9,955 nt of DNA from a virus (lineage: Duplodnaviria; Heunggongvirae; Uroviricota; Caudoviricetes), in the IMG/VR virus record IMGVR_UViG_2703718815_000001, positions 1 to 9,955 of that record; one strand, 5' to 3'. Made by a program: the position numbers and the translations under genes. Position 1 is the stretch's first letter. Every line of letters starts with the position of its first letter. Positions 1-9,955 of this stretch are shown here, one piece after another. Under the pieces are notes generated by a model. It ran no database searches. It saw nothing but the letters and a program-made list of their open reading frames with translations, and was not told the DNA's origin.

Positions 1-27
1 CTTTCGGGTCGCCGGTTTTCAAGACCG
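1..27 (-). other. 3'-portion fragment of a tRNA-Ser(UGA)-like gene (anticodon stem-loop plus start of long variable arm), cut by the window edge; probable att core duplicate
   Basis: Reverse complement of 1-27 is CGGTCTTGAAAACCGGCGACCCGAAAG: a CGGT/ACCG stem around the 7-nt loop CUUGAAA (U33, anticodon UGA, A37), then GCGACCCGAAAG as in class II seryl-tRNA variable arms. This matches my recollection of E. coli serT. Positions 28-60 are A-rich and cannot form the D-arm or acceptor 5' half, so only the 3' part is present. Confidence 0.5.
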
Positions 28-168
28 AAGAAAAATAAAGAAAAATCAGTATAATACGCAAAATAGCCGAAAAGTTAATCAGACTTAACACCAAGAAAAA
101 TCAAGATGTTAGGGAGTTATTCAGAGTTAATATACCAGGTCTTTTTGCCAGAAAATTTTCTGGATTGT
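28..168. repeat. AT-rich att arm region with direct repeats AAGAAAAAT(A/C)A (28-38, 38-48, 93-103) and a 16-bp palindrome CCAGAAAATTTTCTGG (148-163) abutting the int stop codon
   Basis: Repeats and palindrome read directly from the sequence. The position, between the tRNA-like core and the 3' end of int, is where arm-type Int/IHF/Xis binding sites lie in lambdoid attP/attL. Function is inferred. Confidence 0.35.
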
Positions 169-1188
169 CTACTTACTGACCACAAGCGGCAAATCCAGTG
201 TTGGCGTGATTTTGGTTTTACGATCGTAAATCAACACCTGATTTTCTGTTTTGTGTCCACTGAAAATTTGTTTGTCGCGACTGCTGCCTTCATAATCTGA
301 AATTCCTTTGGCTTTTATGTCATGGAAGTTGCACCCAAACGGAACACCGGCTTTTTGCTCGGCTGCACGTTTAGCCTGATTCCACCAGTTGTTCAGCGTT
401 TTAGCTATGACCTTCCCGCCTTTGGTTGTGTTGATCACATACTCGCATGTGCCGGAAGATACATTTCGGGCTAACTGGATCGCCGTACGTAATCGTGGAG
501 ACCATTCCTTGATTTGTTTGGTGCCGGTCTTGTTTTGCTCAATGTAAATCCCTTTGTCCATAATATCCTCCCATTTCAGCTCGAGCACATCACCGAGCCT
601 TGCCGCACAGAGATAGGATATCTCCATTGCAATACGTAACTGTGGAATTGCTTCCGCATATATCGCAGCATACTGTTCATCGGTGATGTAAACAGTACGG
701 GCTTTAAGCGTGAATTTTCTGACTCCTTTGCATGGATTATTTTTCACATACCCACGCTCATATCCCCATCCGTATACGCGACTCAGACTTGCCAGTTCAT
801 GGTTTGCCTGGGTCTTGCTCTCAAGACCCCGCTTATCCATGAAAATTCTTACCTGCTCAATTTTTACATTATCAGCAAGCATTTTCCCGAATACCGCCAG
901 TAATGCCCTTTGATGTTGCCGATAATCTTTTTGGGTTCGGGGGGCCAGTTCTGTAAATGCAGGGGAGTCCATAAACATGTGCCATAATTTAGCTACGGTC
1001 ATTATGTCGTGGAGTTTTGCCTTTTCCAGTTCATAATTTTGCCAGACTTTAGCCACGCTGGTTTCCCGCACTCTTCCGAGCTTTATCGTTCTTGTGCTTC
1101 CTTTGGGTTTCCATACGTAACTGTAACCATTCGATCTAACGCGCGGTGGCAGTACATTATCTTTTTTGTCTTTTCTTGGTCTTCCCAT
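169..1188 (-). CDS. int: Tyrosine-type phage integrase (lambda Int family)
   Basis: 339-aa ORF. The central segment TDEQYAAIYAEA...LRIAMEISYLCAARLGDVLELKWEDI...YIEQNKTGTK parallels lambda Int (LTADEYLKIYQAA...LRLAMELAVVTGQRVGDLCEMKWSDI...YVEQSKTGVK). The C-terminal region has His and Tyr in the expected catalytic arrangement (FHDIKAKGISDY...SGHKTENQVLIYDRK). It lies next to xis and the att core. Confidence 0.9.
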   Translation of the reverse strand: MGRPRKDKKDNVLPPRVRSNGYSYVWKPKGSTRTIKLGRVRETSVAKVWQNYELEKAKLHDIMTVAKLWHMFMDSPAFTELAPRTQKDYRQHQRALLAVFGKMLADNVKIEQVRIFMDKRGLESKTQANHELASLSRVYGWGYERGYVKNNPCKGVRKFTLKARTVYITDEQYAAIYAEAIPQLRIAMEISYLCAARLGDVLELKWEDIMDKGIYIEQNKTGTKQIKEWSPRLRTAIQLARNVSSGTCEYVINTTKGGKVIAKTLNNWWNQAKRAAEQKAGVPFGCNFHDIKAKGISDYEGSSRDKQIFSGHKTENQVLIYDRKTKITPTLDLPLVVSK

Positions 1189-1408
1189 TATTCAGTGCCT
1201 CAAAATCGGGTTCAGCAGAAACCAGTTCAGATACTTTTGACATTGCTGTTAGTCCACGTGGAATATCACAGCGTAGAACTATCGGCTCGTTTTTAGGCCC
1301 GATTAAAAATGGGATGCCGTGCAGTCTTAACTGGTGTTGCTGTCTTGTGTATCGCTTGTATTTCGTGATCTCTTGAATCTCTGCTGGCGATAGAGTTAAT
1401 TCATACAT
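1157..1408 (-). CDS. xis: Excisionase-like small DNA-binding protein (Xis/YdaQ-like)
   Basis: 83-aa basic ORF directly upstream of int, overlapping its start by 32 nt (classic xis-int arrangement). AAGG lies about 12 nt upstream of the ATG at 1408. Family assignment (DUF1233-type excisionase) is recollection, not a search result. Confidence 0.65.
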   Translation of the reverse strand: MYELTLSPAEIQEITKYKRYTRQQHQLRLHGIPFLIGPKNEPIVLRCDIPRGLTAMSKVSELVSAEPDFEALNNGKTKKRQKR

Positions 1409-1433
1409 GTGGTCACGTGCCTTACAGCATGAC

Positions 1434-1460
1434 CGCCGCCAATATAATTCGGAGGCGGCG
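1434..1460 (-). promoter_or_regulatory. Hairpin (7-bp GC stem CGCCGCC/GGCGGCG, 13-nt loop) between the exonuclease stop and the xis start
   Basis: Inverted repeat 1434-1440 / 1454-1460 read from the sequence. No U-tract follows on the minus strand, so it is not a canonical intrinsic terminator; it may be an RNA-processing or retroregulation element. Confidence 0.25.
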
Positions 1461-1474
1461 ATCAGGGTTGAACA

Positions 1475-3955
1475 TTAAAAATCAGCCTGACTCGGGATCA
1501 GTTTTTGTATCGTAGCTGTAACGTATTTTGCCTGGTGACGGGCGTCATCCAGTGCATTGTGGCGCACGCCTTCGAATGGAATAACGGTTCTGGCATCAAA
1601 GTCGATTGTTTTTCCCAGCTCAACGATTGTGCGTACATCGCGATCGTTGTGGTAGCTCCACGGGCAGGGGATGTCCAGACGTTCGTATGAGGTGCGCAAA
1701 ATTGCGTTATCGAAAGTTGCACCATTACCCCATACCTGAACGAATTTTTCATCTGAGTATTCGTTGATGAACTCCCGAAACTGCGAAAGGGCATCCTTCA
1801 GTTTTACCTGGTCTGTTAAAATGGCAGCTCTGGCTTCACTGGACTGCTTCAGCCACCATTCGATGGTTCCACCGTCAGGAACAGCCCCTGTATTCATTGC
1901 GTCAGTCAGACTGATAACGATATAAAATACTGGCCCGATTTCCCCTGTTTGTGGGTCGAAGAAAACCGCACCAATAACCACGATGGGCGCATTGGTGTTG
2001 GTTCCCATTGTTTCAAGGTCGATCATCAGGTGGTACCACACTCTGCTGGTGGATGTGATAACGTGATGACCGTTCACCGCAATTAAGGGATCTGCCGTCT
2101 CGCCAGTTTCATTATCGCTGGCGTGGTCCTGAGCGCTGCCAGCATTCTCCTTGTGTGGATGTTCAGCGCCTTCCATTTCCTCCGGATCATTTTCCTGAAC
2201 TTCAACCTGATTCTCTTCATCGAATGTTTCCTGATATGTTGCGTCGCCCATCACCGCACCACAATCAGGGCAGTTGCCGCCACCGATCTGACCGCAGGCG
2301 GTGCAGACTTTTTCCGCTTCCTGTTGCGCTACCGGTTCGGATTGTTTCGTTTCTGGCTCGTTTTGTAACGCATTTTGGCTGTTTTGTTCCGCTTTCTGGT
2401 TGTTCTGTTCCGTTTCTTGCTGGTTCTGGTTCACAGAATCGCGGGTTTCAATCCCCTTCACCCATTTCGGATCATTCGGGTCGCTAATCCCTGCAACAAA
2501 TTCTCCGCGAGAGGCAGCAAGCAGTTCATTAGCGTCAGGCTGGCTGATATTGGCTGCCTGCATAATTTTGTTTACTTCGTCAGCGGTAACTTTTACCGGC
2601 TCTGGTTGTGCGGTCGTGTCAGATGCACCAGTATTTTGTTGTGAGCCTGAGTATGTACCGTTTTTGCGGGCAAAATATTCTTCTTTCGTGATTTCAGTAG
2701 CCCCTGCAGCCAGCGCCTTATTCAGACCAGAAAGTTTGTTTGCACGACCATATTTTTCGCCATCCTTATCGGTGAAAAGGAAGTAGAACGGCCCCTCACG
2801 CTCTACAGATGGTTCAGTTTCCAGCGTGTTTTCATTTTTTTGGGTATCAGATACTTCAGTTTCCACTGCATCAGTTTGTACTGCTGACGGCTGGAGAATA
2901 TCAGCAGTGTTCTGGTCTGTTTCTTCATCCTCAAACACGCCCTTTGTCGCCAGGTATTCAGTGATGTATTTGTTCAGTGCTACGGGATCTTTGTGAATGT
3001 CGATCGGACGCTCACGGACAAGGCCAAAAATAGTCTGACGGTCGTAGCGAACGGCATCGGGTTGTTTGCGCATAGATGCGGAAATGCGCTTCCAGTCTTC
3101 GCGATCTTTGTCGATAACTTCATTTTTTGCCCAGCGATGGATGCTGCCGTCAATGTTTCCGGCATTAATATCGCCAGGCCACAGAGCGTAGGCCAGTTCT
3201 TCATCCAGCGTTTTCCATGTCTGCTTGTATTCGCGATGAATGGCGGCAGTGGTGGGGTTGATTTTTCCTGCTGAGTTTTCAGTGTGCTGCCGGTTGACTC
3301 TGGCGCGGGCAAGATCAACAACAGACGTGTATTTCCCGGTTTCTTTGCGTTCGGTTTCGCGACGTTTTTTCCAGGTGCGTAATTCTGTCTGGATCTCAGG
3401 CCATTTTGCACCCGGCTTACATTTATGTTTAACCCACCCGATGGCGAGCAGCTTTAGTTCTGAATACATGACGTTAACTTCAGGCATTTTCATCAATGCC
3501 TCAACGATATGCCCGTCGAATGTTGCCATGTCCTCCTGCAACAATTCCTGTGCACTAATCACCATATCAACGGTGATGTTTTCACATGTACCGAACTTAA
3601 CCAGGACCGCGTTCTGTACTTCAAGGGACAGCTTGTCAAAATTGACGTTCATCGGATCGGATTCTGGTTCGACCGGGACAAAGGAAGCGCCTTCCTCATC
3701 CCAGCGGTTTTCCAGCATATATTCGGTATCCCAGGAGTCGATGGCAGGGCGGGGCATGCCGGGTTTATCCTCGCAGACAAGAAATTTATAAGCGCAGTCC
3801 TGAGCAGCCGGATATTGCTCCAGGAATTGCCAGGTAAATTTGGCACGGGCGCGACGTTCGTCGCCGGCTTCAATGGCAGTGGCTACAGCGACTGCACCTT
3901 CTTTCTTTATTGCCTGTTCGTCCGGAATGGCGGCGCAAATAAAGACTTTACTCAT
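1475..3955 (-). CDS. Large multidomain phage exonuclease (often annotated exodeoxyribonuclease VIII-like): N-terminal domain of unknown function, Q/N/E-rich linker, CxxC...CxxC zinc ribbon, C-terminal DEDDh (DnaQ-like) 3'-5' exonuclease domain
   Basis: 826-aa ORF with GAGG 9 nt upstream of the ATG at 3955. The C-terminal ~183 aa carry DEDDh motifs: MIDLET (Exo I), [12 protein letters not shown] (Exo II), [13 protein letters not shown] (Exo III). [16 protein letters not shown] is a 4-Cys ribbon (DNA about 2255-2305). A low-complexity [18 protein letters not shown] linker is encoded by tandem DNA repeats at about 2330-2420. The segment [29 protein letters not shown] resembles my memory of the RecE middle region; the N-terminus resembles what Qin ydfE encodes (recollection). 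Confidence 0.8.
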
Positions 3956-4035
3956 TTTGTTTTAACCTCATTACAGATTTAAGGGTGAACAAATCCCTGC
4001 CATTGCTGGCATATAAAAATGAAACCGGATATTAA

Positions 4036-4239
4036 TTACGGCGCTGTTTTAAGTCCTGCCGGGATTTCGTTATTATCCATGTGAATAACTTTATCGACCG
4101 GATAGCAGTTACCGGGAATTTTTTGTTCTGCTGCGGCAGCCATGCATTCTTTCATTGAACCGTAAATGTCAATAACCATGTCAACAGGCTCGCCAGTATT
4201 AAGGAAAACAGTCAGAGTGAGGGCAATAGCAGTATTCAT
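4036..4239 (-). CDS. Small membrane protein, YdfD-like (Qin prophage lysis-associated protein family), 67 aa
   Basis: Start chosen at the internal ATG 4239 (AAGGA 8 nt upstream), which overlaps the dicB-like stop as ATGA (translational coupling). N-terminal hydrophobic helix MNTAIALTLTVFL. Size and position match ydfD downstream of dicB in Qin. The track ORF 4036..4293 begins upstream, inside dicB. Confidence 0.6.
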   Translation of the reverse strand: MNTAIALTLTVFLNTGEPVDMVIDIYGSMKECMAAAAEQKIPGNCYPVDKVIHMDNNEIPAGLKTAP

Positions 4240-4424
4240 TGCCAGTATCCTTTTTGCATCGGGCGTAAACGTGCCAGCATTGAAAGAATGCATATTTTAT
4301 TTAATAGCTCCCGTTCGTGTTTTCTCTTATTAATGGCATCTTCAGTAAATGCAGGGTTACTGATTTTGACACCAATTTCAAAACAACCTTCAGACGTATT
4401 AACGTTTGGTAATAACGTTTCCAT
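4236..4424 (-). CDS. dicB: Cell-division inhibitor DicB homolog, 62 aa
   Basis: From the internal ATG at 4424 (GAGGA 7 nt upstream) the product is METLLPNVNTSEGCFEIGVKISNPAFTEDAINKRKHERELLNKICILSMLARLRPMQKGYWQ. This matches the length and, closely, the sequence of Qin DicB as I recall it. It follows a DicF-like element, as in Qin. Confidence 0.75.
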   Translation of the reverse strand: METLLPNVNTSEGCFEIGVKISNPAFTEDAINKRKHERELLNKICILSMLARLRPMQKGYWQ

Positions 4425-4607
4425 TATCGCGTCCTCAACAATGAATTTTGTGATACGGTGCCTGGTGCCTCCAGGTGACGTTAACCAGTTAACAATTAAC
4501 GCCGGATACAGAGAACCCACCCATAAGAACCAATACGGAAGTCAACTGGCCTTTTTAACTGTTCCGCGTGCGCTGAGCCGCATTCACCGCATCACAAAAT
4601 TCACTTT

Positions 4608-4670
4608 AAAAAGGGCGGGTATCACAAGGGAAAACAAAAAACGGATACCCGCCAAAAGGTAATCAACATG
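4608..4670 (-). ncRNA. dicF: DicF-family small RNA (divergent variant) with intrinsic terminator
   Basis: Minus strand reads ...UGUUGAUUACCUUUUGGCGGGUAUCCGUUUUUUGUUUUCCCUUGUGAUACCCGCCCUUUUUAAAGUGAAUUUUGUGAUG. It has a 10-bp stem (4614-4623 / 4644-4653) followed by a CUUUUU tract. It shares UUUGGCGG...UAUC.GUUUU...CCGCCCUUUUU with K-12 DicF (recollected 53-nt sequence), but the 5' dozen nucleotides differ. It sits between the ydfC-like and dicB-like genes as in Qin. The 5' end is estimated by alignment, not mapped. Confidence 0.55.
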
Positions 4671-4790
4671 GGTTGTTGCAGCGGGGTTGTCACTTAAGCG
4701 TATGGTCAACCTGACAACCCGGTGTCCTCAACGGGGAAGGAATAACCCCGCCATACTTACCGCCGCGCCATTTCGCGGAGTGCCACAACC

Positions 4791-4857
4791 GGAAGCGCAC
4801 AGACGAAGATGTCAGTGGTACACAACAAAGGGAGGAATGACTTCGCTGTGCGCTTCC
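4791..4857 (-). promoter_or_regulatory. Long near-perfect RNA hairpin (12 bp + 1-nt bulge + 5 bp stem, about 32-nt loop) in the untranslated leader upstream of the DicF-like RNA; candidate RNase III processing stem
   Basis: GGAAGCGCACAG-A-CGAAG (4791-4808) pairs with CTTCG-CTGTGCGCTTCC (4841-4857). It lies about 120 nt upstream of the inferred DicF-like 5' end. In K-12 the DicF precursor is cut by RNase III upstream of the mature RNA (established knowledge); the assignment here is inference. Confidence 0.3.
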
Positions 4858-4985
4858 GTGTTATGCCCTGACTTTTCAGGGATATATCCTTTCAGTAAAC
4901 TGCCAGTGCCGGATGCTCACCCGTGTCCGGCGCACGCACTCCACCTCACCCGTGGAGAACTCCTTAATTAACAACCCTCAGGAGG

Positions 4986-5216
4986 GTGATTTTGAACACA
5001 ATAAAAACCACTATTAATAATGATTTATCCCATGATGGAATAAATGCCGAATTAAGAGCCATTAAGCTCGCGATAGCTTTGATGGCAACAAGACTTCCGC
5101 CAGAACTTCGCTCAGATTGTGTAACAGATGCTTTAAAAAGCACAGGTGATAAACATGCCACTGAATTAGCAAACCTGATTCAACAATTCATAGATGAGGC
5201 GAATTCTCAAAACTGA
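4986..5216 (+). CDS. Hypothetical small protein (74-76 aa), AT-rich, opposite orientation to the surrounding operon; no family recognised
   Basis: Perfect AGGAGG at 4980-4985. Start is GTG 4986 (0-nt spacing) or, more plausibly, TTG 4992 (6-nt spacing); there is no in-frame ATG near the start. First codon positions are purine-rich and third positions A/T-rich, consistent with coding in an AT-rich acquired gene. Predicted helical and soluble. No obvious sigma70 promoter seen upstream. Confidence 0.4.
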   Translation: MILNTIKTTINNDLSHDGINAELRAIKLAIALMATRLPPELRSDCVTDALKSTGDKHATELANLIQQFIDEANSQN

Positions 5217-5367
5217 TTGTTATTTCTTTCTGAAAACTTTTACTATCCAGGCATTTTTTTGCTAACCAAATGCGGGCCTCTGTGCCTGCATTGGGCTCCA
5301 GTTCATGTAAGCGTTTTGCATCTTCCAGAAGCAAGGCAATAACGTGTTTAAGTTCTGTTTCATTCAT
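5188..5367 (-). CDS. Hypothetical small protein (59 aa; 63 aa if started at 5379); no family recognised
   Basis: ATG at 5367 with GAGG 6 nt upstream, 15 nt after the ydfC-like stop and co-oriented with the operon. The 3' end overlaps the plus-strand ORF by 29 bp (5188-5216). Product: MNETELKHVIALLLEDAKRLHELEPNAGTEARIWLAKKCLDSKSFQKEITISFENSPHL. Confidence 0.45.
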   Translation of the reverse strand: MNETELKHVIALLLEDAKRLHELEPNAGTEARIWLAKKCLDSKSFQKEITISFENSPHL

Positions 5368-5382
5368 CGTCAACCTCATCGG

Positions 5383-5598
5383 TCAGTAGTTTGCAATCAC
5401 TCGCGAAACGTTTAATGCCGCTCTTTTTGCCAGAGTGGTAATATCTTGCTCCGCTGATGCCAGTTCTTTAGAGAGGCGCTCTTTGTAGTCAGCAGCCTGC
5501 TTCATGTCATTAATGGCGCGTATCTTCCCGCACATCCATTCGTAAATTTCATCATCGGTATAGTCTGGCGCGATGATGACGGGTTCTCGTTTCTGCAT
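5383..5598 (-). CDS. YdfC-like small protein (71 aa) of the dicB-type operon
   Basis: GAGGAA 7 nt upstream of the ATG at 5598. Size (Qin YdfC is 72 aa) and position (third gene of the operon) match; sequence similarity is from memory only. Confidence 0.6.
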   Translation of the reverse strand: MQKREPVIIAPDYTDDEIYEWMCGKIRAINDMKQAADYKERLSKELASAEQDITTLAKRAALNVSRVIANY

Positions 5599-5628
5599 AC
5601 TGAATTCCTCGCGGTGCCGCTTCGCTTA

Positions 5629-5757
5629 TCAGCCGTTAGATTTTGCCGAACTGGAAAGCGCCTGTTTAAACTCACTGAAGCTGAGAGCTTCTTCGCCTTC
5701 GGCAAGGCCTTCGAAGTATTCTTCGTAAGCCTTTTCCATGATTGTGTCGAAATCCAT
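5629..5757 (-). CDS. YdfB/YdaG-like small acidic protein (42 aa); not in the supplied ORF track (below its length cutoff)
   Basis: Manual translation of the reverse complement: MDFDTIMEKAYEEYFEGLAEGEEALSFSEFKQALSSSAKSNG, with AGGTGAG just upstream of the ATG at 5757. It starts 1 nt after the ydfA-like stop. Size matches Qin YdfB (42 aa). Confidence 0.6.
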   Translation of the reverse strand: MDFDTIMEKAYEEYFEGLAEGEEALSFSEFKQALSSSAKSNG

Positions 5758-5758
5758 A

Positions 5759-5914
5759 TCACTCACCTGAGTTTCTTTCCAGCCAGCGACGAGCGCCAGT
5801 TTCGGTTTTAAACGTTTTGCTTTTGGTATACGTCATCGCGGTGAATGTGCCGTCCTGGTTGGGGAACACGCCACATACCAGAGATTCGCTGTTGCCAAGA
5901 TCGATAGTATCCAT
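5759..5914 (-). CDS. YdfA/YdaF-like small protein (51 aa), first gene of the leftward early operon
   Basis: Internal ATG at 5914 with GAGG 6 nt upstream gives MDTIDLGNSESLVCGVFPNQDGTFTAMTYTKSKTFKTETGARRWLERNSGE (51 aa, the size of Qin YdfA and Rac YdaF). An alternative upstream ATG at 5992 (77 aa) also has a GAGG and cannot be excluded. Confidence 0.6.
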   Translation of the reverse strand: MDTIDLGNSESLVCGVFPNQDGTFTAMTYTKSKTFKTETGARRWLERNSGE

Positions 5915-6092
5915 GTTGACCTCATTTCCCCTTAACGCCGGGGTAGCGGAACAAAAACCTGCTGCATAGTTAAAGTTGAACCCTGCCGTCATGTTCTTAC
6001 GCCTCGGGCTGGCTACTTAACCCCTGACCACTGCCTGGTAACTCGAAGTATTGCCCTGCATTCTGTGGGGCGGGGTGGGTTGGTATGAGAAA

Positions 6093-6134
6093 ACTATAGG
6101 TAATGCCTAATTGCTTGTCAATAGGCTATGCCTA
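6093..6134 (-). promoter_or_regulatory. Leftward early promoter (pL-like) with overlapping operators (OL)
   Basis: On the minus strand: -35 TTGACA (plus 6116-6121), 17-nt spacer, -10 TATAGT (plus 6093-6098). Operator palindromes TAGGT-AAT-GCCTA (6097-6109) and TAGGC-TAT-GCCTA (6122-6134) overlap the promoter. Confidence 0.5.
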
Positions 6135-6231
6135 ATGTTTTTTGCGCACAACCTAATAGGCGATGGTATGTGGAAGAGGTAATGGGAGCTAAATAACGGG
6201 ATCTAGGAGCTTCCCGTCGGACCATATAAGT

Positions 6232-6708
6232 TTAAGTTCCCGTTTTGGTGATGTTCTGGCTTTTCCGTTCTGATTCTTGATTTTTCAGATAGTTACTTAC
6301 CTTCATTTCCATTGCAGTAATGTAGGCGCGAACGTCATGATCAACCCAACCAGACTCCGCAGCATTTCCAGATAAGAGGAAAGCTACAATTGCTCTTTTT
6401 TCATCAGAAGCGGCTTGATAAAGGCTGTTTATGTCTAAAAGTTCTCTTTTTGAATCTGAGCAGGAAGGGGTTGGTATGGGGTATTCGTTAAGCCCCCAAT
6501 GCTCTGGACCAACCACATCAGAAAAGAAACGCCATAGTTCTGGAAGTTTATCTTTACTTATCGAACCTTTCTTAATCCAGTCATGGATTGATGGTGGTTG
6601 GACTTTGAAATGGCGTGCGATCTCCGCCTTTGATTTGACGGCTCCTGATGCAATTTTTTTATTAATGGCCTGCTCTATCGCTCGGCCTAAGTCTTTACCA
6701 CTAAGCAT
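6232..6708 (-). CDS. racR: Prophage repressor, cI-type HTH protein (RacR-like), 158 aa
   Basis: N-terminal HTH region (KSKAEIARHFKVQPPSIHDWIKKGS). It sits between two operator/promoter regions and is divergent from the Cro-like ydaS. Length is identical to Rac RacR (158 aa). Symbol is given on synteny and size; the sequence is not recalled residue by residue. Confidence 0.75.
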   Translation of the reverse strand: MLSGKDLGRAIEQAINKKIASGAVKSKAEIARHFKVQPPSIHDWIKKGSISKDKLPELWRFFSDVVGPEHWGLNEYPIPTPSCSDSKRELLDINSLYQAASDEKRAIVAFLLSGNAAESGWVDHDVRAYITAMEMKVSNYLKNQESERKSQNITKTGT

Positions 6709-6736
6709 TGCTTAATAGTCTCCTATGTGCATTGCA

Positions 6737-6805
6737 TTAGGCAATCCCTACCTATTGGTTGTTAGGCATAGCCTATTGACAATGATGTTAGGCGTCGCCT
6801 AATAT
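6737..6805 (+). promoter_or_regulatory. Rightward early promoter (pR-like) with three operators (OR)
   Basis: -35 TTGACA at 6776-6781, 18-nt spacer, -10 TAATAT at 6800-6805. Operators TAGGC-AAT-CCCTA (6737-6749), TAGGC-ATA-GCCTA (6763-6775) and TAGGC-GTC-GCCTA (6789-6801) have centres 26 bp apart. Confidence 0.55.
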
Positions 6806-6832
6806 CATTGTGTGTTTTTTGGAGTTCATTCG

Positions 6833-7156
6833 ATGAAAAAAGAGAACTATTCATTCAAACGAGCTTGTGCTGTTGTCGGTGGGCAATCAGCAATGGCCAG
6901 ACTTTTAGGGGTATCGCCTCCAAGCGTAAATCAATGGATCAAAGGTGTACGTCGGTTGCCTGCCGAGAGATGTCCAGCGATTGAACGAGCAACAAAAGGT
7001 GGAGTCCTGTGTGAAGAACTTCGTCCTGATGTTGACTGGTCATACTTACGACGTTCGTCATGTTATTCGCAGAATATGTCGATGAAGCAACCAAATGACA
7101 AAAACGATCATACCCGAAGTATCAAGAGGCAAATGATTCATGAAAATCAAGCATGA
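6833..7156 (+). CDS. ydaS: Cro-like HTH protein YdaS
   Basis: ATG at 6833 with GGAG 8 nt upstream. The track's GTG start at 6812 would sit inside the -10 region. MKKENYSFKRACAVVGGQSAMARLLGVSPPSVNQWIKGVRRLPAERCPAIERA closely matches Rac YdaS as I recall it. Confidence 0.75.
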   Translation: MKKENYSFKRACAVVGGQSAMARLLGVSPPSVNQWIKGVRRLPAERCPAIERATKGGVLCEELRPDVDWSYLRRSSCYSQNMSMKQPNDKNDHTRSIKRQMIHENQA

Positions 7157-7565
7157 ACACATCCGCATGGCGATGAATGCCTGGGCGCATCCGGACGGTG
7201 AAAAAGTTCCGGCAGCTGAAATAACCCGGGCTTATTTTGAGCTGGGTATGACGTTCCCGGAGCTATATGACGACAGCCATCCGGAAGCCCTGGCTCGCAA
7301 TACTCAGAAAATATTCCGCTGGGTGGAGAAAGACACCCCTGATGCTGTTGAAAAAATTCAGGCGTTGTTACCAGCGATCGAAAAAGCAATGCCACCTCTG
7401 CTGGTGGCCCGAATGCGCAGCCACAGTTCAGCCTATTTTCGGGAGCTGGTGGAGACGCGGGAACGACTGGTGAGAGACGCTGATGATTTTGTCGCAGTGG
7501 CGATCGCTGGTTTCAACCAGATGAATCGTGGTGGTCCGGCGGGAAATGCCGTGGTGATGCACTAA
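7140..7565 (+). CDS. ydaT: YdaT-family protein (141 aa), reported as toxic on overexpression and as a CII-like regulator
   Basis: Overlaps the ydaS 3' end; AAGAGG 10 nt upstream of the ATG. Size (Rac YdaT is 140 aa) and position (after ydaS, before the replication genes) match. Confidence 0.7.
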   Translation: MKIKHEHIRMAMNAWAHPDGEKVPAAEITRAYFELGMTFPELYDDSHPEALARNTQKIFRWVEKDTPDAVEKIQALLPAIEKAMPPLLVARMRSHSSAYFRELVETRERLVRDADDFVAVAIAGFNQMNRGGPAGNAVVMH

Positions 7566-7588
7566 AAGCACGGTGTTCGGAGTTTTTT

Positions 7589-8536
7589 ATGAGCAGCAAG
7601 CTTCATGGTCTTGTCTGGGAAGGGTGTGCCTTCACCGGCATGATCTTATCCAGGGTGGCAGTAATGGCTCGCCTTGCAGATTACAGCAATGACGAAGGTG
7701 TGTCATGGCCTGCAGTGGAGACCATTCGTCGTCAGATTGGGGCAAAGAGTGAATCAACGGTTAAAGCTGCGATAGCAGAACTGGAAAAGAACGGCTGGCT
7801 GACGAAGGAAGAACGTAAGGTCGGTGGGCGTAATGAAAGCAATATCTACCGTCTTAATGTGGAAAAACTCGAAGCAGCAGCAGCGGCGGCGCGTGAGGCA
7901 TATAAACCGAAAAGAAAAATTAACCCGGTAAAAAATGACCCGTCAAATATTGACCCCTCAACGGTTGACCCCTCAAATTTTGATGGATCAACCGTTGATA
8001 AAAAACATCCGGTTAGGGGGGCGATGGTTGGCCCCGATCCGTCAGTATTAAAACCTGATCCGTCAGATAAAAGATCTTTTCGTCCGGACGCTTCGCAACC
8101 GGACCCGCAGACGGCTGAACAGGATTTTTTAACCCGACACCCTGACGCGGTTGTGTTCAGTGCGAAAAAACGCCAGTGGGGCAGCCAGGAAGATTTGGCG
8201 TGTGCGCAGTGGATCTGGGGACGAATCGTGAGTCTTTACGAGCAGGCTGCCAGCGATGATGGCGAAATCATGCGACCGAAAGAACCAAACTGGACTGCAT
8301 GGGCCAATGATGTGCGCACAATGCGGATGCTGGATGGCAGAACTCACAGACAAATTTGCGAAATGTTTGGTCGGGCACAGCGGGATCCATTCTGGGTAAA
8401 AAACGTCATGAGCCCGTCAAAGCTTCGCGAAAAATGGGATGAGCTGGTTATTCGTCTGGGGCGTTCGCCTGTACAGCGTTGCGTGAATCATATTTCCGAG
8501 CCGGACGCCGAAATTCCGCCGGGATTCAGGGGGTAA
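7589..8536 (+). CDS. Replication initiation protein (lambda O-like / YdaU-like) with N-terminal HTH DNA-binding domain
   Basis: 315-aa ORF with GGAG 5 nt upstream. N-terminal winged-helix-like region. The central linker (NPVKNDPSNIDPSTVDPSNFDGSTVD) is encoded by iteron-like DNA repeats, as the lambda ori lies inside O. Immediately followed by the DnaC-like loader. Confidence 0.75.
   Translation: MSSKLHGLVWEGCAFTGMILSRVAVMARLADYSNDEGVSWPAVETIRRQIGAKSESTVKAAIAELEKNGWLTKEERKVGGRNESNIYRLNVEKLEAAAAAAREAYKPKRKINPVKNDPSNIDPSTVDPSNFDGSTVDKKHPVRGAMVGPDPSVLKPDPSDKRSFRPDASQPDPQTAEQDFLTRHPDAVVFSAKKRQWGSQEDLACAQWIWGRIVSLYEQAASDDGEIMRPKEPNWTAWANDVRTMRMLDGRTHRQICEMFGRAQRDPFWVKNVMSPSKLREKWDELVIRLGRSPVQRCVNHISEPDAEIPPGFRG
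7936..7991. repeat. Putative replication-origin iterons: four 11-bp units TGACCCGTCAA / TGACCCCTCAA / TGACCCCTCAA / TGATGGATCAA at an exact 15-bp period, followed by an A-rich tract
   Basis: Units start at 7936, 7951, 7966 and 7981, each with an internal TGA...TCA inverted symmetry. They are located inside the O-like gene linker. Origin function is inferred by analogy to ori-lambda. Confidence 0.5.
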
Positions 8537-8542
8537 CGAAGC

Positions 8543-9289
8543 ATGAAAAATATTGCGACAGGCGGTGTTCTTGAACGCATCCGTAAGCTGGCTCCGCAGC
8601 ATGTAACCGCGCCATACCGAACAGTGGACGAGTGGCGCGAGTGGCAACTTGCAGAAGGCCAGAAGCGTTGCGAGGAGATCAACCGCCAGAATCGTCAGTT
8701 GCGGGTGGAAAAAATTCTGAATCGCTCCGGCATCCAGCCGTTGCACCGCAAGTGCTCGTTTGCGAATTACCAGGTGCAGAATGACGGCCAGCGATACGCG
8801 TTGAGCCAGGCGAAATCCATCGCCGATGAACTGATGACCGGATGCACAAATTTCGCATTCAGCGGAAAACCTGGTACCGGAAAAAACCATCTGGCGGCGG
8901 CTATCGGGAATCGCCTGCTGAAAGATGGCCAGACAGTGATTGTGGTTACCGTGGCTGATGTCATGAGTGCTCTACACGCCAGCTATGACGACGGGCAATC
9001 AGGCGAAAAATTTTTGCGGGAACTGTGCGAAGTGGATCTGCTGGTTCTTGATGAAATTGGTATTCAGCGCGAGACGAAAAACGAGCAGGTGGTACTGCAC
9101 CAGATTGTTGATCGCCGGACAGCGTCGATGCGCAGCGTGGGGATGCTGACAAACCTGAACTATGAGGCCATGAAAACATTGCTCGGCGAGCGGATTATGG
9201 ATCGCATGACCATGAACGGCGGGCGCTGGGTGAATTTTAACTGGGAGAGCTGGCGCCCGAATGTTGGTCAGCCAGGTATTGAGAAGTAA
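8543..9289 (+). CDS. DnaC-like helicase loader / IstB-type AAA+ ATPase (YdaV-like replication protein)
   Basis: 248-aa ORF with Walker [16 protein letters not shown] and Walker [10 protein letters not shown]. It follows the O-like initiator; length matches Rac YdaV (248 aa). Confidence 0.9.
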
Positions 9290-9311
9290 TTTTTACCGGG
9301 AGGAAATTTTA

Positions 9312-9955
9312 ATGGAGACCGTTTTTGACGCACTGAAAGCGATGGGAAAAGCCACGTCGGTAGAACTGGCTGCGCGACTTGATATCAGTCGTGAAGAGGT
9401 ACTGAACGAGCTGTGGGAACTGAAAAAGGCTGGTTTCGTTGATAAAAGCGTATACACCTGGCGTGTAGCTGGTGAAGGTGAATCCGGGGTAGCCGAAGAG
9501 CAGCCAGCACAATCTGAAGTACAGGATGTGCTAACCAGGGAGGTCGAACGAAAAGTTACCGCTGACATGATGATTGAGTTTATCGGTCAGGAGGGAGCTA
9601 AAACGTGTGAGGAACTGGCGGGTAAGTTTGGTGTCAGCACTCGCAAGGTTGCTTCCACGCTGGCGGTAGTAACCGCAACGGGGCGGCTGGCACGCGTAAA
9701 CCAGAACGGTAAATTTCGCTACTGCATGCCGGGCGGTAATTTACCAGCAGAGCCGAAAGCTGCATTGGTAGCGGAAACTGATGGTAAAGCCTTTCCTCAG
9801 CCAGCAAGTGTTGCGTTACCAGTACAGGAAGCTGCAACACAGGAAGATATTAAAACAGAAACTGTGGCGGACATTGTGCAGCCGCTTGAGAAGCGAGTGG
9901 ATAATCTGGTTCTGCCATCGCTGCGACAGGCAAACCGCGAACTGCGTCGGGCGAA
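9312..9955 (+). CDS. Hypothetical phage protein, 3'-truncated by the window end; two tandem winged-helix-like repeats at the N-terminus
   Basis: ATG at 9312 with GGGAGG 8 nt upstream; open frame to the window end (not in the track because it is incomplete). Internal duplication: [33 protein letters not shown] versus [39 protein letters not shown]. Confidence 0.6.

Follow-up and report, generated by a model that had tools for sequence, protein, structure and literature searches.

What does a lambdoid prophage encode at the position of dicF when the sequence found there is not that of DicF? The question is raised by a 9,955-nucleotide stretch of a Caudoviricetes virus (IMG/VR record IMGVR_UViG_2703718815_000001, positions 1 to 9,955; hereafter the window, by which we mean the whole stretch at its full length). 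An element on the minus strand of this lambdoid prophage, 184 nucleotides (nt) 5′ of the division-inhibitor gene dicB, had been taken in a reading of the letters alone (hereafter the sequence-only reading) for a small RNA (sRNA) of the DicF family with a divergent 5′ region. In that reading the element ran from 4670 to 4608, where the minus strand reads CAUGUUGAUUACCUUUUGGCGGGUAUCCGUUUUUUGUUUUCCCUUGUGAUACCCGCCCUUUUU. In our interpretation, the element is an unannotated allele of a lambdoid-prophage sRNA gene that precedes a division-inhibitor gene, within its leader; the division-inhibitor gene is dicB in the window and kilR in some relatives. DicF of the Qin prophage and KilS of the Rac prophage are the two characterised alleles of this sRNA gene. 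We lean towards the view that the element is an expressed, terminator-ended sRNA of the DicF/KilS group, with a target set that is unlike that of DicF.

Replacement of the sequence between the dicF flanks

The element was aligned with the Qin dicF locus of Escherichia coli K-12 (b1574) and with phage Tritos, the record of which annotates DicF. The upstream flank of approximately 117 nt, which ends in ...CCCCGCUGCAAC, and the downstream flank of approximately 55 nt, which begins with CUUUUUAAAGUGAAUUUUGUGAUG, are near-identical to the flanks of the K-12 locus, and CUUUUUAAAGUGAAUUUUGUGAUG itself is identical, as the sequence-only reading had stated of the downstream spacer. Like dicF, the element follows ydfA-type early genes, at a distance of 175–185 nt from the dicB gene that comes next. 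What has been replaced relative to K-12 is the segment of 63–70 nt between the flanks, that is, the 5′ tail and the hairpin interior. This variable segment starts at 4674, four bases further upstream than had been proposed, and from 4674 to 4608 the element reads, 5′ to 3′, AACCCAUGUUGAUUACC-UUUU-GGCGGGUAUC-CGUUUUUUGUUUUCCCUUGU-GAUACCCGCC-CUUUUU. The 12 nt that precede UUUGGCGG do differ from those of K-12, as had been noticed: the window has UGUUGAUUACCU and K-12 has UUUCUGGUGACG. The latter is the single-stranded 5′ seed of DicF, which is absent from the element and in the place of which AUGUUGAUUACC is found.

The divergence is not limited to the 5′ region, as had been supposed. The terminator half was expected to match K-12, and its stem base GGCGG/CCGCC and CUUUUU tail do so, whereas the upper stem and the entire interior do not. 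The K-12 hairpin is GGCGGUA-U-CAGU...ACUG-CUC-UGCCGCC, and only its five basal stem pairs and its tail are common to both loci. Unlike DicF, the window lacks the inner stem CAGU/ACUG and ACUCCGUGACUGCUCUG, which pair with ftsZ and pykA, and has a stem of 10 base pairs (bp) and a loop of 20 nt instead. Because the interior has been replaced, the DicF segment that is used against ftsZ and pykA has been replaced as well. Further similarities to DicF are the UUU(U) before the stem and the loop start AUC-N-GUUUU.

According to the curated Rfam definition, the element is not a DicF. The Rfam DicF model (RF00039; gathering score 48) scored the K-12 locus at 76.7 bits and phage Tritos at 72.5 bits. 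In the window, the same model returned nothing at the gathering threshold and nothing at E ≤ 10 on stretches of 501 nt and 101 nt, and the assignment of the element to the DicF family is not sustained. Three matches to other Rfam families with E-values of 2.7 to 7.1 (RF_site3, DUF2815 RNA and a fungal small nucleolar RNA) were set aside as noise. It had also been suggested that the element may be an already described DicF allele, but it is not identical to any annotated DicF copy in the records examined. In its location and its terminator, the element nevertheless corresponds to DicF, since it occupies the early-operon position before dicB and has a GGCGG...CCGCC hairpin followed by CUUUUU, which is a predicted terminator.

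The hairpin, which we refer to as class H2, has a minimum free energy (MFE) of −18.5 kcal/mol with z = −4.6, and none of 200 shuffled sequences was as stable. The fold consists of the 10-bp stem plus two weak extra pairs that enclose a loop of 15–20 nt. A stretch of 201 nt that spans the element recurs with 100% identity in no fewer than 18 complete genomes of E. coli, O121:H19 strains included. Because of this identity and the z-score, we consider the hairpin to be more than a product of chance. At the identical O121 locus, a DUF1391 (ydfA-like) gene lies 5′ of the element and dicB lies 3′ of it, and the Prokaryotic Genome Annotation Pipeline (PGAP) has no annotation at the site of the element in any genome listed. 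Beyond the slot region, the window is only 85–91% identical to the prophage of O121 RM8352 (window 5150–5620, minus strand, vs. 5182–5571 of our locus L002), and it is without a 129-amino-acid (aa) hypothetical gene of that prophage. Therefore, an identical slot is embedded in different prophage backgrounds.

A protein-coding reading of the element was rejected. The only candidate was a 41-aa open reading frame (ORF) with a TTG start (4584–4709, minus strand), which has no ribosome-binding site and is interrupted by an in-frame stop within K-12 DicF; moreover, the H2 loop lengths of 17, 18, 19 and 20 nt differ by non-multiples of three, and the frame is not retained in other alleles. Judged from its sequence, the element is not coding. 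An independent promoter was rejected as well, since no sigma-70-like promoter was predicted on the minus strand of window 4200–5700, which includes 1 kb upstream of the element. This result fits processing from an operon transcript.

A polymorphic slot with modular alleles

IMG/VR was scanned for slot sequences with a gapped pattern made of the two flanks and again with the 5′ module of the window, and species-representative genomes were scanned as well; once loci from complete E. coli genomes had been added, the set comprised 197 slot sequences. Two main 5′ modules occur in these sequences, namely, A (...UCAAUUUUCUGGUGACG, the 5′ end of DicF) and B (AACCCAUGUUGAUUACC, the module of the window), in addition to a rare B′ form. 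The modules are combined with at least four hairpin classes, all of which stand on a GGCGG...CCGCC-CUUUUU base: H1 is canonical DicF, H2 is the window type, H3/H3′ has the form GGCGGCAUC(A/U)G...CUGAUGUCCGCC, and H4 is a bare 6-bp hairpin. The combinations were A+H1 (116), B+H2 (49), B+H3 (24), A+H3′ (4) and A+H4 (2), with two deletion alleles (n = 197), and these counts should not be read as frequencies because they come from two differently targeted scans. Module B itself occurs with two hairpin classes, H2 and H3. When 142 unique sequences, including 86 canonical and 30 H2 sequences, were aligned with MAFFT, the identity between canonical and H2 sequences was 0.94–0.99 in the flanks and 0.36–0.60 in the slot.

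A hairpin on the GGCGG/CCGCC base is predicted for each allele class. The upper part of the stem is class-specific, and the MFE folds show UA/UG, GUAUC/GAUAC, CAUCAG/CUGAUG and A/U as paired throughout. The basal five pairs are invariant across the classes and are therefore uninformative on covariation. The sixth pair covaries (GC 7, UG 3, AU 1 and unpaired 4, with a register shift in H3). Within H2, the 5′ module is invariant and the stem is nearly so: among 49 loci, single changes that break the stem number approximately five. The H2 loop occurs in eight variants of 17–20 nt, many of which differ in the length of a U-run; all of them contain UUCCC, and nearly all contain GUUUU. The identity of the loop columns is 0.74–0.87 for H2 vs. 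0.97–1.00 for canonical DicF. Such variation is consistent with a short, conserved loop core between freely varying flanks, and equally with a terminator loop under relaxed constraint.

A locus with these flanks is present in 4,373 of 5,426 complete E. coli genomes, at a median of two places per genome and approximately 9,900 places in total. The H2 slot was found in 158 of the 5,426 genomes (e.g., O121:H19 RM8352 and 16-9255 and O55:H7 CB9615) and the H3 slot in approximately 136, and no RNA is annotated at the H2 or H3 sites among the genomes listed. Among the sequenced phages of INPHARED, H2 occurs in only one record. The downstream gene is dicB at 162 of 180 loci, kilR at nine and neither at nine, and H2 alleles also lie upstream of kilR, for example at locus L136 (3001–3457; NZ_CP137737.1). 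The immunity regions that adjoin H2 alleles vary between prophages, and two isolate genomes have an H2 allele on one prophage contig and canonical DicF on another.

Other observations on the distribution of the slot were made in passing. Same-isolate pairs of IMG/VR loci (L024/L183, L086/L203 and L101/L198) carry canonical DicF and H2 on different contigs or two copies of H2, and six places in O121 RM8352 match the slot region. A phage record assigned to Actinobacillus pleuropneumoniae (PP818812.1, 5992–6055) has an E. coli-type H2 slot with 94% identity, and metagenome-assembled genomes labelled Veillonella parvula and Collinsella (L130 and L132) have a canonical dicF slot; host mis-assignment or mis-binning is the likely cause of these three assignments. 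Two natural deletion alleles from IMG/VR (L165 and L178; AACCCATGTTGATTACCTTTTCATTGCTGGCTGATGTCCGTCC) are without the 5′ half of the H3 hairpin, a loss that, from their sequence, is expected to leave the division-inhibitor gene with no terminator ahead of it.

A further allele of the slot is found in the Rac prophage of K-12. The RefSeq noncoding RNA kilS (b4833; 98 nt; NC_000913.3 1418405–1418502, equivalent to L204 2406–2503, minus strand) lies upstream of kilR, and its 3′ part is GGCGGCAUCAG-UUUUUUUCUUGAAGUUCGG-CUGAUGUCCGCC-CUUUUU, followed by the flank AAAGUGAAUUUUGUGAUGCGGUGAAUGCGG as at dicF. The region upstream of kilS in K-12 Rac is without the upstream flank of the slot. On this comparison of sequences, KilS has an H3-type hairpin and is an allele or paralogue of the dicF slot. 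KilS was discovered by Hfq RIL-seq (RNA interaction by ligation and sequencing) and verified by northern blotting, with yncL as its reported partner and possibly its own promoter, in a paper that does not mention DicF (Bar et al., 2021; PMC8175672). DicF, for its part, is a trans-acting sRNA that ends at the dicF-slot terminator (PMC5069750, PMC9438474). Therefore, two alleles of the slot are experimentally supported as sRNAs, and KilS shows that non-DicF alleles of the slot can be Hfq-bound sRNAs.

The element shares with KilS the slot in the leader of a division inhibitor, the downstream flank AAAGUGAAUUUUGUGAUGCGGUGAAUGCGG, the stem base and the U-tail. More widely, it has the traits of the DicF/KilS slot group, namely, the flanking sequences (...CCCCGCUGCAAC on the upstream side and UUUAAAGUGAAUUUUGUGAUG on the downstream side) and a place in the leader of dicB or kilR. 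KilS differs in its loop, in its H3-type stem GGCGGCAUCAG/CUGAUGUCCGCC, where the window has GGCGGGUAUC/GAUACCCGCC of the H2 type, and in its 5′ part, which is longer and unrelated. The B+H3 allele (e.g., in E. coli SE11; approximately 136 complete genomes, unannotated) has the same module B, flanks and linked downstream block as the window, but its hairpin is KilS-like and scores 34 bits with the Rfam DicF model. H3 and H2 alleles thus have the 5′ module, the flanks and the linked downstream block in common, and the H3 hairpin type is common to KilS. The scores of the Rfam DicF model descend stepwise through the alleles, from 76.7 bits for A+H1 and 43.5 bits for A+H3′ to approximately 34 bits for B+H3 and B′+H3″ and to no match for B+H2.

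To build a covariance model, which we designate R1, we took four variants of DicF, the A+H3′ and A+H4 alleles and the 3′ part of KilS. No sequence with module B or H2 was included, and the search was run with filters off. R1 matches window 4608–4661 on the minus strand at 21.7 bits (E approximately 3e-4, from a rough calibration); this is the sole significant match, and the next best among the 16 matches listed has 8.7 bits. The model also matches all seven of the H2 alleles tested, at 20–23 bits. The matched columns are UUUGGCGG, AUC-N-GUUUU and CCGCCCUUUUU, and therefore the support comes mostly from the terminator base, the tail and the start of the loop.

Proposed biogenesis, targets and rival explanations

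We propose that the early-left operon, which contains the racR-like repressor gene, the DUF1391 gene and others, would be transcribed toward dicB and that most transcripts would end at the GGCGGGUAUC...GAUACCCGCC-CUUUUU hairpin (4608), which would both limit the toxic DicB and create the 3′ end of an RNA. RNase E prefers RN↓WUU, and GA↓UUACC in module B resembles this preference. Because the 5′ end of DicF is RNase E-dependent (PMC9438474), we infer that module B may hold an RNase E site near GA↓UUACC, and trimming of the AU-rich 5′ tail by this enzyme would leave an RNA of approximately 55–65 nt. In this product, a stable stem with a 20-nt loop rich in U and C would be preceded by a U-rich stretch and followed by a U-tail, which is the architecture of an Hfq-dependent sRNA. 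U-rich stretches are general Hfq contacts in such sRNAs, and by analogy the UUUU stretch, which is the counterpart of the UUU before GGCGG in DicF, may bind Hfq. The 53-nt form of DicF arises from early Rho-independent termination and RNase E trimming, and its 72-nt form arises from RNase III cleavage of the operon (dicBF) transcript (PMC9438474). By analogy with the latter, read-through transcripts may be cut in the long downstream stem, which would contain the RNase III site responsible for the longer form of DicF. The RNA would then pair in trans, most likely through the exposed loop core GUUUU...UUCCC, which is anti-Shine-Dalgarno-like.

In the proposed biogenesis (early termination and RNase E trimming) and in architecture, the element is similar to SroC, CpxQ and SdhX, which are 3′-UTR-derived (3′ untranslated region) or intra-operonic Hfq sRNAs. 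However, these are core-genome genes with a conserved seed, whereas the candidate seed regions of the slot vary between alleles. In the C-rich loops of Staphylococcus aureus RNAIII and the Rsa RNAs, UCCC motifs pair with Shine-Dalgarno sequences. A loop that exposes UUCCC could similarly occlude ribosome-binding sites, although this is an analogy of mechanism only, with an unrelated lineage. In 3′-UTR-derived and intra-operonic Hfq sRNAs such as SroC, according to a review, the sequence outside the seed evolves fast (PMC9438474).

According to Balasubramanian et al., DicF pairs through its 3′ region with the ribosome-binding site of ftsZ and through its 5′ end with xylR, a third target being pykA (PMC5069750). 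Target pairing was scored as the hybridisation energy plus the opening energies of both partners, over −60 to +30 of each mRNA, and was compared with 180 Shine-Dalgarno-containing translation-initiation regions from the fetched loci. The scoring recovers the pairs of DicF with xylR (−14.3 kcal/mol, seed GGUGACGUUU), pykA (−11.9 kcal/mol) and ftsZ (−8.3 kcal/mol). For the window allele, the scores are −4.0 kcal/mol for xylR, −4.7 kcal/mol for pykA, −3.8 kcal/mol for ftsZ and −4.4 kcal/mol for manX. By this model, the xylR and pykA pairing of DicF is lost in the window allele. The proposal that the variant could retarget the sRNA is consistent with this computed loss, and no new target was identified among the mRNAs scored. 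Because both the xylR-pairing 5′ seed and the pykA-pairing loop of DicF have been replaced, the target set should differ from that of DicF.

The ftsZ score also bears on the possibility that the element still functions as an orthologue of DicF and represses ftsZ, through its U/C-rich loop at the purine-rich ribosome-binding site GGAGAGAAAC, and differs only in secondary metabolic targets. The locus adjoins a second division inhibitor as DicF does, the loop can be aligned with DicF GUUUUACUCCGUGA as GUUUU..CCC..GUGA, and stretches of the UUUUCCC type in every H2 loop are able to pair with ftsZ −12 to −1. Against this ftsZ segment, the other H2 loop variants score −3.4 to −7.5 kcal/mol, and the commonest sister variant, H2b, is at the favourable end of the range, near the −8.3 kcal/mol of proven DicF. 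However, the best contact of the window allele itself (UUUUCCCU of the loop with CGGAGAGAAA) is matched or exceeded by 66% of the 180 background regions, in a test of such low power that the proven DicF–ftsZ pair is only in the top 12%. The modelled pairing of H2 with ftsZ is generic anti-Shine-Dalgarno complementarity, and we consider a surviving DicF function of this kind to be improbable.

Several findings weigh against an expressed sRNA with its own target set. The loop is the most variable part of H2, and much of its change is in homopolymer length, as from slippage, a pattern that suggests relaxed constraint rather than a conserved seed. Only the terminator features (five base pairs and the U-run) are invariant across all classes, the terminator base and tail account for much of the R1 score, and the minimal allele H4 is little beyond a terminator. 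None of the four mRNAs scored (xylR, pykA, ftsZ and manX) is a convincing target, and the ftsZ score is worse than the background median. With a 20-nt loop and only five U's, the terminator is itself weaker than is typical, and the full hairpin was missed by a simple terminator scan.

The constancy of nothing but the stem base and U-run, the bare H4 hairpin, the U-run indels that separate the H2 loops, the lack of a scored target above background and the location of the slot before a division-inhibitor gene at all but nine of the 180 loci would also suit an intrinsic terminator or attenuator and nothing else. Such an element would shield the lysogen from read-through into toxic dicB or kilR, its tail and loop would be filler, and no trans function would be left. 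Yet a loop of 17–20 nt is needless for termination and weakens it, while UUCCC is kept in all eight loop variants and GUUUU in nearly all of them. The element has kept its U-tail and the U-rich stretch that precedes the stem, and both characterised alleles of the slot are Hfq-associated sRNAs. The two roles are also not exclusive, since DicF is both a terminator and an sRNA. We regard a terminator without any further function as a serious alternative but an unlikely one. It is far less probable, and in our opinion scarcely credible, that the element is a decaying dicF remnant in a cryptic prophage, neither an sRNA nor a regulated terminator. Although the element fails the Rfam DicF model, its host prophages are often defective, and the deletion alleles L165 and L178 have lost half of a hairpin, the perfect 10-bp stem of H2 has been rebuilt with different bases rather than eroded. 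Stem-breaking single changes affect only about 5 of 49 H2 loci, and the allele is carried by 158 genomes in several prophage backgrounds.

The reading that we favour, an sRNA allele of the DicF/KilS group with targets unlike those of DicF, can be extended to the dicF position as a whole, which would then be a modular seed-swap locus where H2 is a functional sRNA with its own targets, possibly unrelated to cell division. We hold this extension to be doubtful. If it is true, the flanks and the constant terminator base would be recombination anchors between which alternative 5′ tails and hairpin interiors (DicF, KilS, H2, H3 and others) are exchanged. Each prophage would bring a differently targeted Hfq sRNA, and polylysogens would gather complementary regulators.

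Flanking blocks, neighbouring genes and significance

The features of the locus are listed in Table 1. The upstream block that forms the left anchor of the slot is unannotated and is missing upstream of kilS in K-12 Rac; it could hold a processing or antitermination signal. In the right anchor, positions 4447–4470 are paired with 4581–4603 in the predicted fold of the leader stem. The leader (4447–4601) matches the Rfam family STnc100 (RF02076, a Salmonella sRNA) at 33.8 bits (E 1e-5; model positions 21–154 of 206), below the gathering score of 47, and the same model scores 31–40 bits on seven related loci. The leader is probably a distant relative of STnc100 and not a member by the curated cut-off, and STnc100 may be the Salmonella counterpart of the dicB/kilR leader.

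Table 1. Positions of the slot, its parts and the neighbouring features in the window.
Feature	Position	Strand	Basis or remark
Variable slot, whole putative sRNA allele (5′ module B, U-rich stretch, hairpin, U-tail)	4608–4674	minus	Alignment with K-12 and phage Tritos; allele census
5′ module B, AACCCAUGUUGAUUACC, AU-rich, single-stranded	4658–4674	minus	In place of the DicF 5′ seed UUUCUGGUGACG and the bases 5′ of the seed
UUUU, U-rich stretch directly 5′ of the hairpin	4654–4657	minus	Sequence; counterpart of DicF UUU before GGCGG
Class H2 hairpin, 10-bp stem GGCGGGUAUC/GAUACCCGCC	4614–4653	minus	Fold and sequence
H2 loop CGUUUUUUGUUUUCCCUUGU, 20 nt, U/C-rich	4624–4643	minus	Sequence
CUUUUU tail, with the hairpin a predicted Rho-independent terminator; presumed sRNA 3′ end	4608–4613	minus	Identical to K-12 dicF and annotated KilS 3′ ends
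GC-rich upstream block common to all allele classes, left anchor of the slot	4675–4790	minus	94–99% identity, canonical vs. H2; predicted structured
Conserved spacer and dicB leader, long stem, right anchor of the slot	4447–4603	minus	Predicted fold; AAUUUUGUGAUGCGGUG pairs with CACCGUAUCACAAAAUU
Second variable block AGGCCAGUUGACUUCCGUAUUGGUUC / AGGCCAGTTGACTTCCGTATTGGTTC, apex of the leader stem	4527–4552	minus	Tightly linked to 5′ module B
dicB, cell-division inhibitor, 62 aa	4236–4424	minus	Pfam DicB PF05358, 125 bits, E 9e-37; PGAP annotation of the matching O121 locus
158-aa ORF		minus	At the position of racR in a closely related O121 prophage; opposite a YdaT-family gene

The second variable block is similar to module B, with which it forms an imperfect direct repeat (CCAxGTTGAxTxCC). 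Loci with module A have CCAAAAACAGUG / CCAAAAACAGTG at this place instead, with only one exception to the linkage in 108 loci. Base pairing between the 5′ module and the downstream block was rejected as the reason for this linkage, since non-cognate combinations pair at least as well as cognate combinations (module A with the block of B loci, A x D_B, −22.4; with the block of A loci, A x D_A, −14.0). The linkage is probably a matter of shared ancestry and not of RNA-RNA contact.

In the order of minus-strand transcription, the 158-aa ORF is followed by small early genes, the element, dicB, a DUF1482 gene, an 826-aa exonuclease gene, a DUF4224 gene and the integrase gene. The 826-aa exonuclease of this early-left operon (window 1475–3955, minus strand) has a C-terminal Rv2179c-like 3′-5′ exoribonuclease domain (PF16473, 228 bits), and no Pfam family was found in its first approximately 640 residues at E ≤ 0.01.

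Faubladier and Bouché reportedly described dicF-like sequences in Rac and in other strains in 1994, and therefore dicF relatives in prophages are, as a general idea, not new. Four copies of dicF in enterohaemorrhagic E. coli (EHEC) were reportedly described by Melson and Kendall in 2019. In the full-text literature that we searched, no paper contains the sequence of the element (11-mers of the stem matched only unrelated primers, on either strand), and nothing was found on natural DicF variants. The survey of Balasubramanian et al. in 2016 covered only dicF copies that are more than 99% identical (PMC5069750). The H2 allele, the modular picture of A/B modules with H1–H4 hairpins and the link between KilS and DicF appear to be new.

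DicF, an Hfq-dependent RNA of approximately 53–72 nt that causes filamentation when overproduced, is a textbook prophage sRNA that acts on host cell division, metabolism and EHEC virulence, but both published studies and annotation see only its near-identical copies, and PGAP relies on the Rfam model. The other slot alleles are present together in approximately 5% of complete E. coli genomes, the O121:H19 and O55:H7 pathogens included, where they are invisible to annotation and are without the known seeds of DicF. The relevance of this finding, which is not surprising in kind, is to annotation and to the biology of Shiga toxin-producing E. coli. If H2 is expressed, the carrier strains would gain an extra, horizontally acquired regulator, and the locus would be a natural example of the retargeting of an sRNA by module exchange, in which the terminator and the biogenesis signals are kept.

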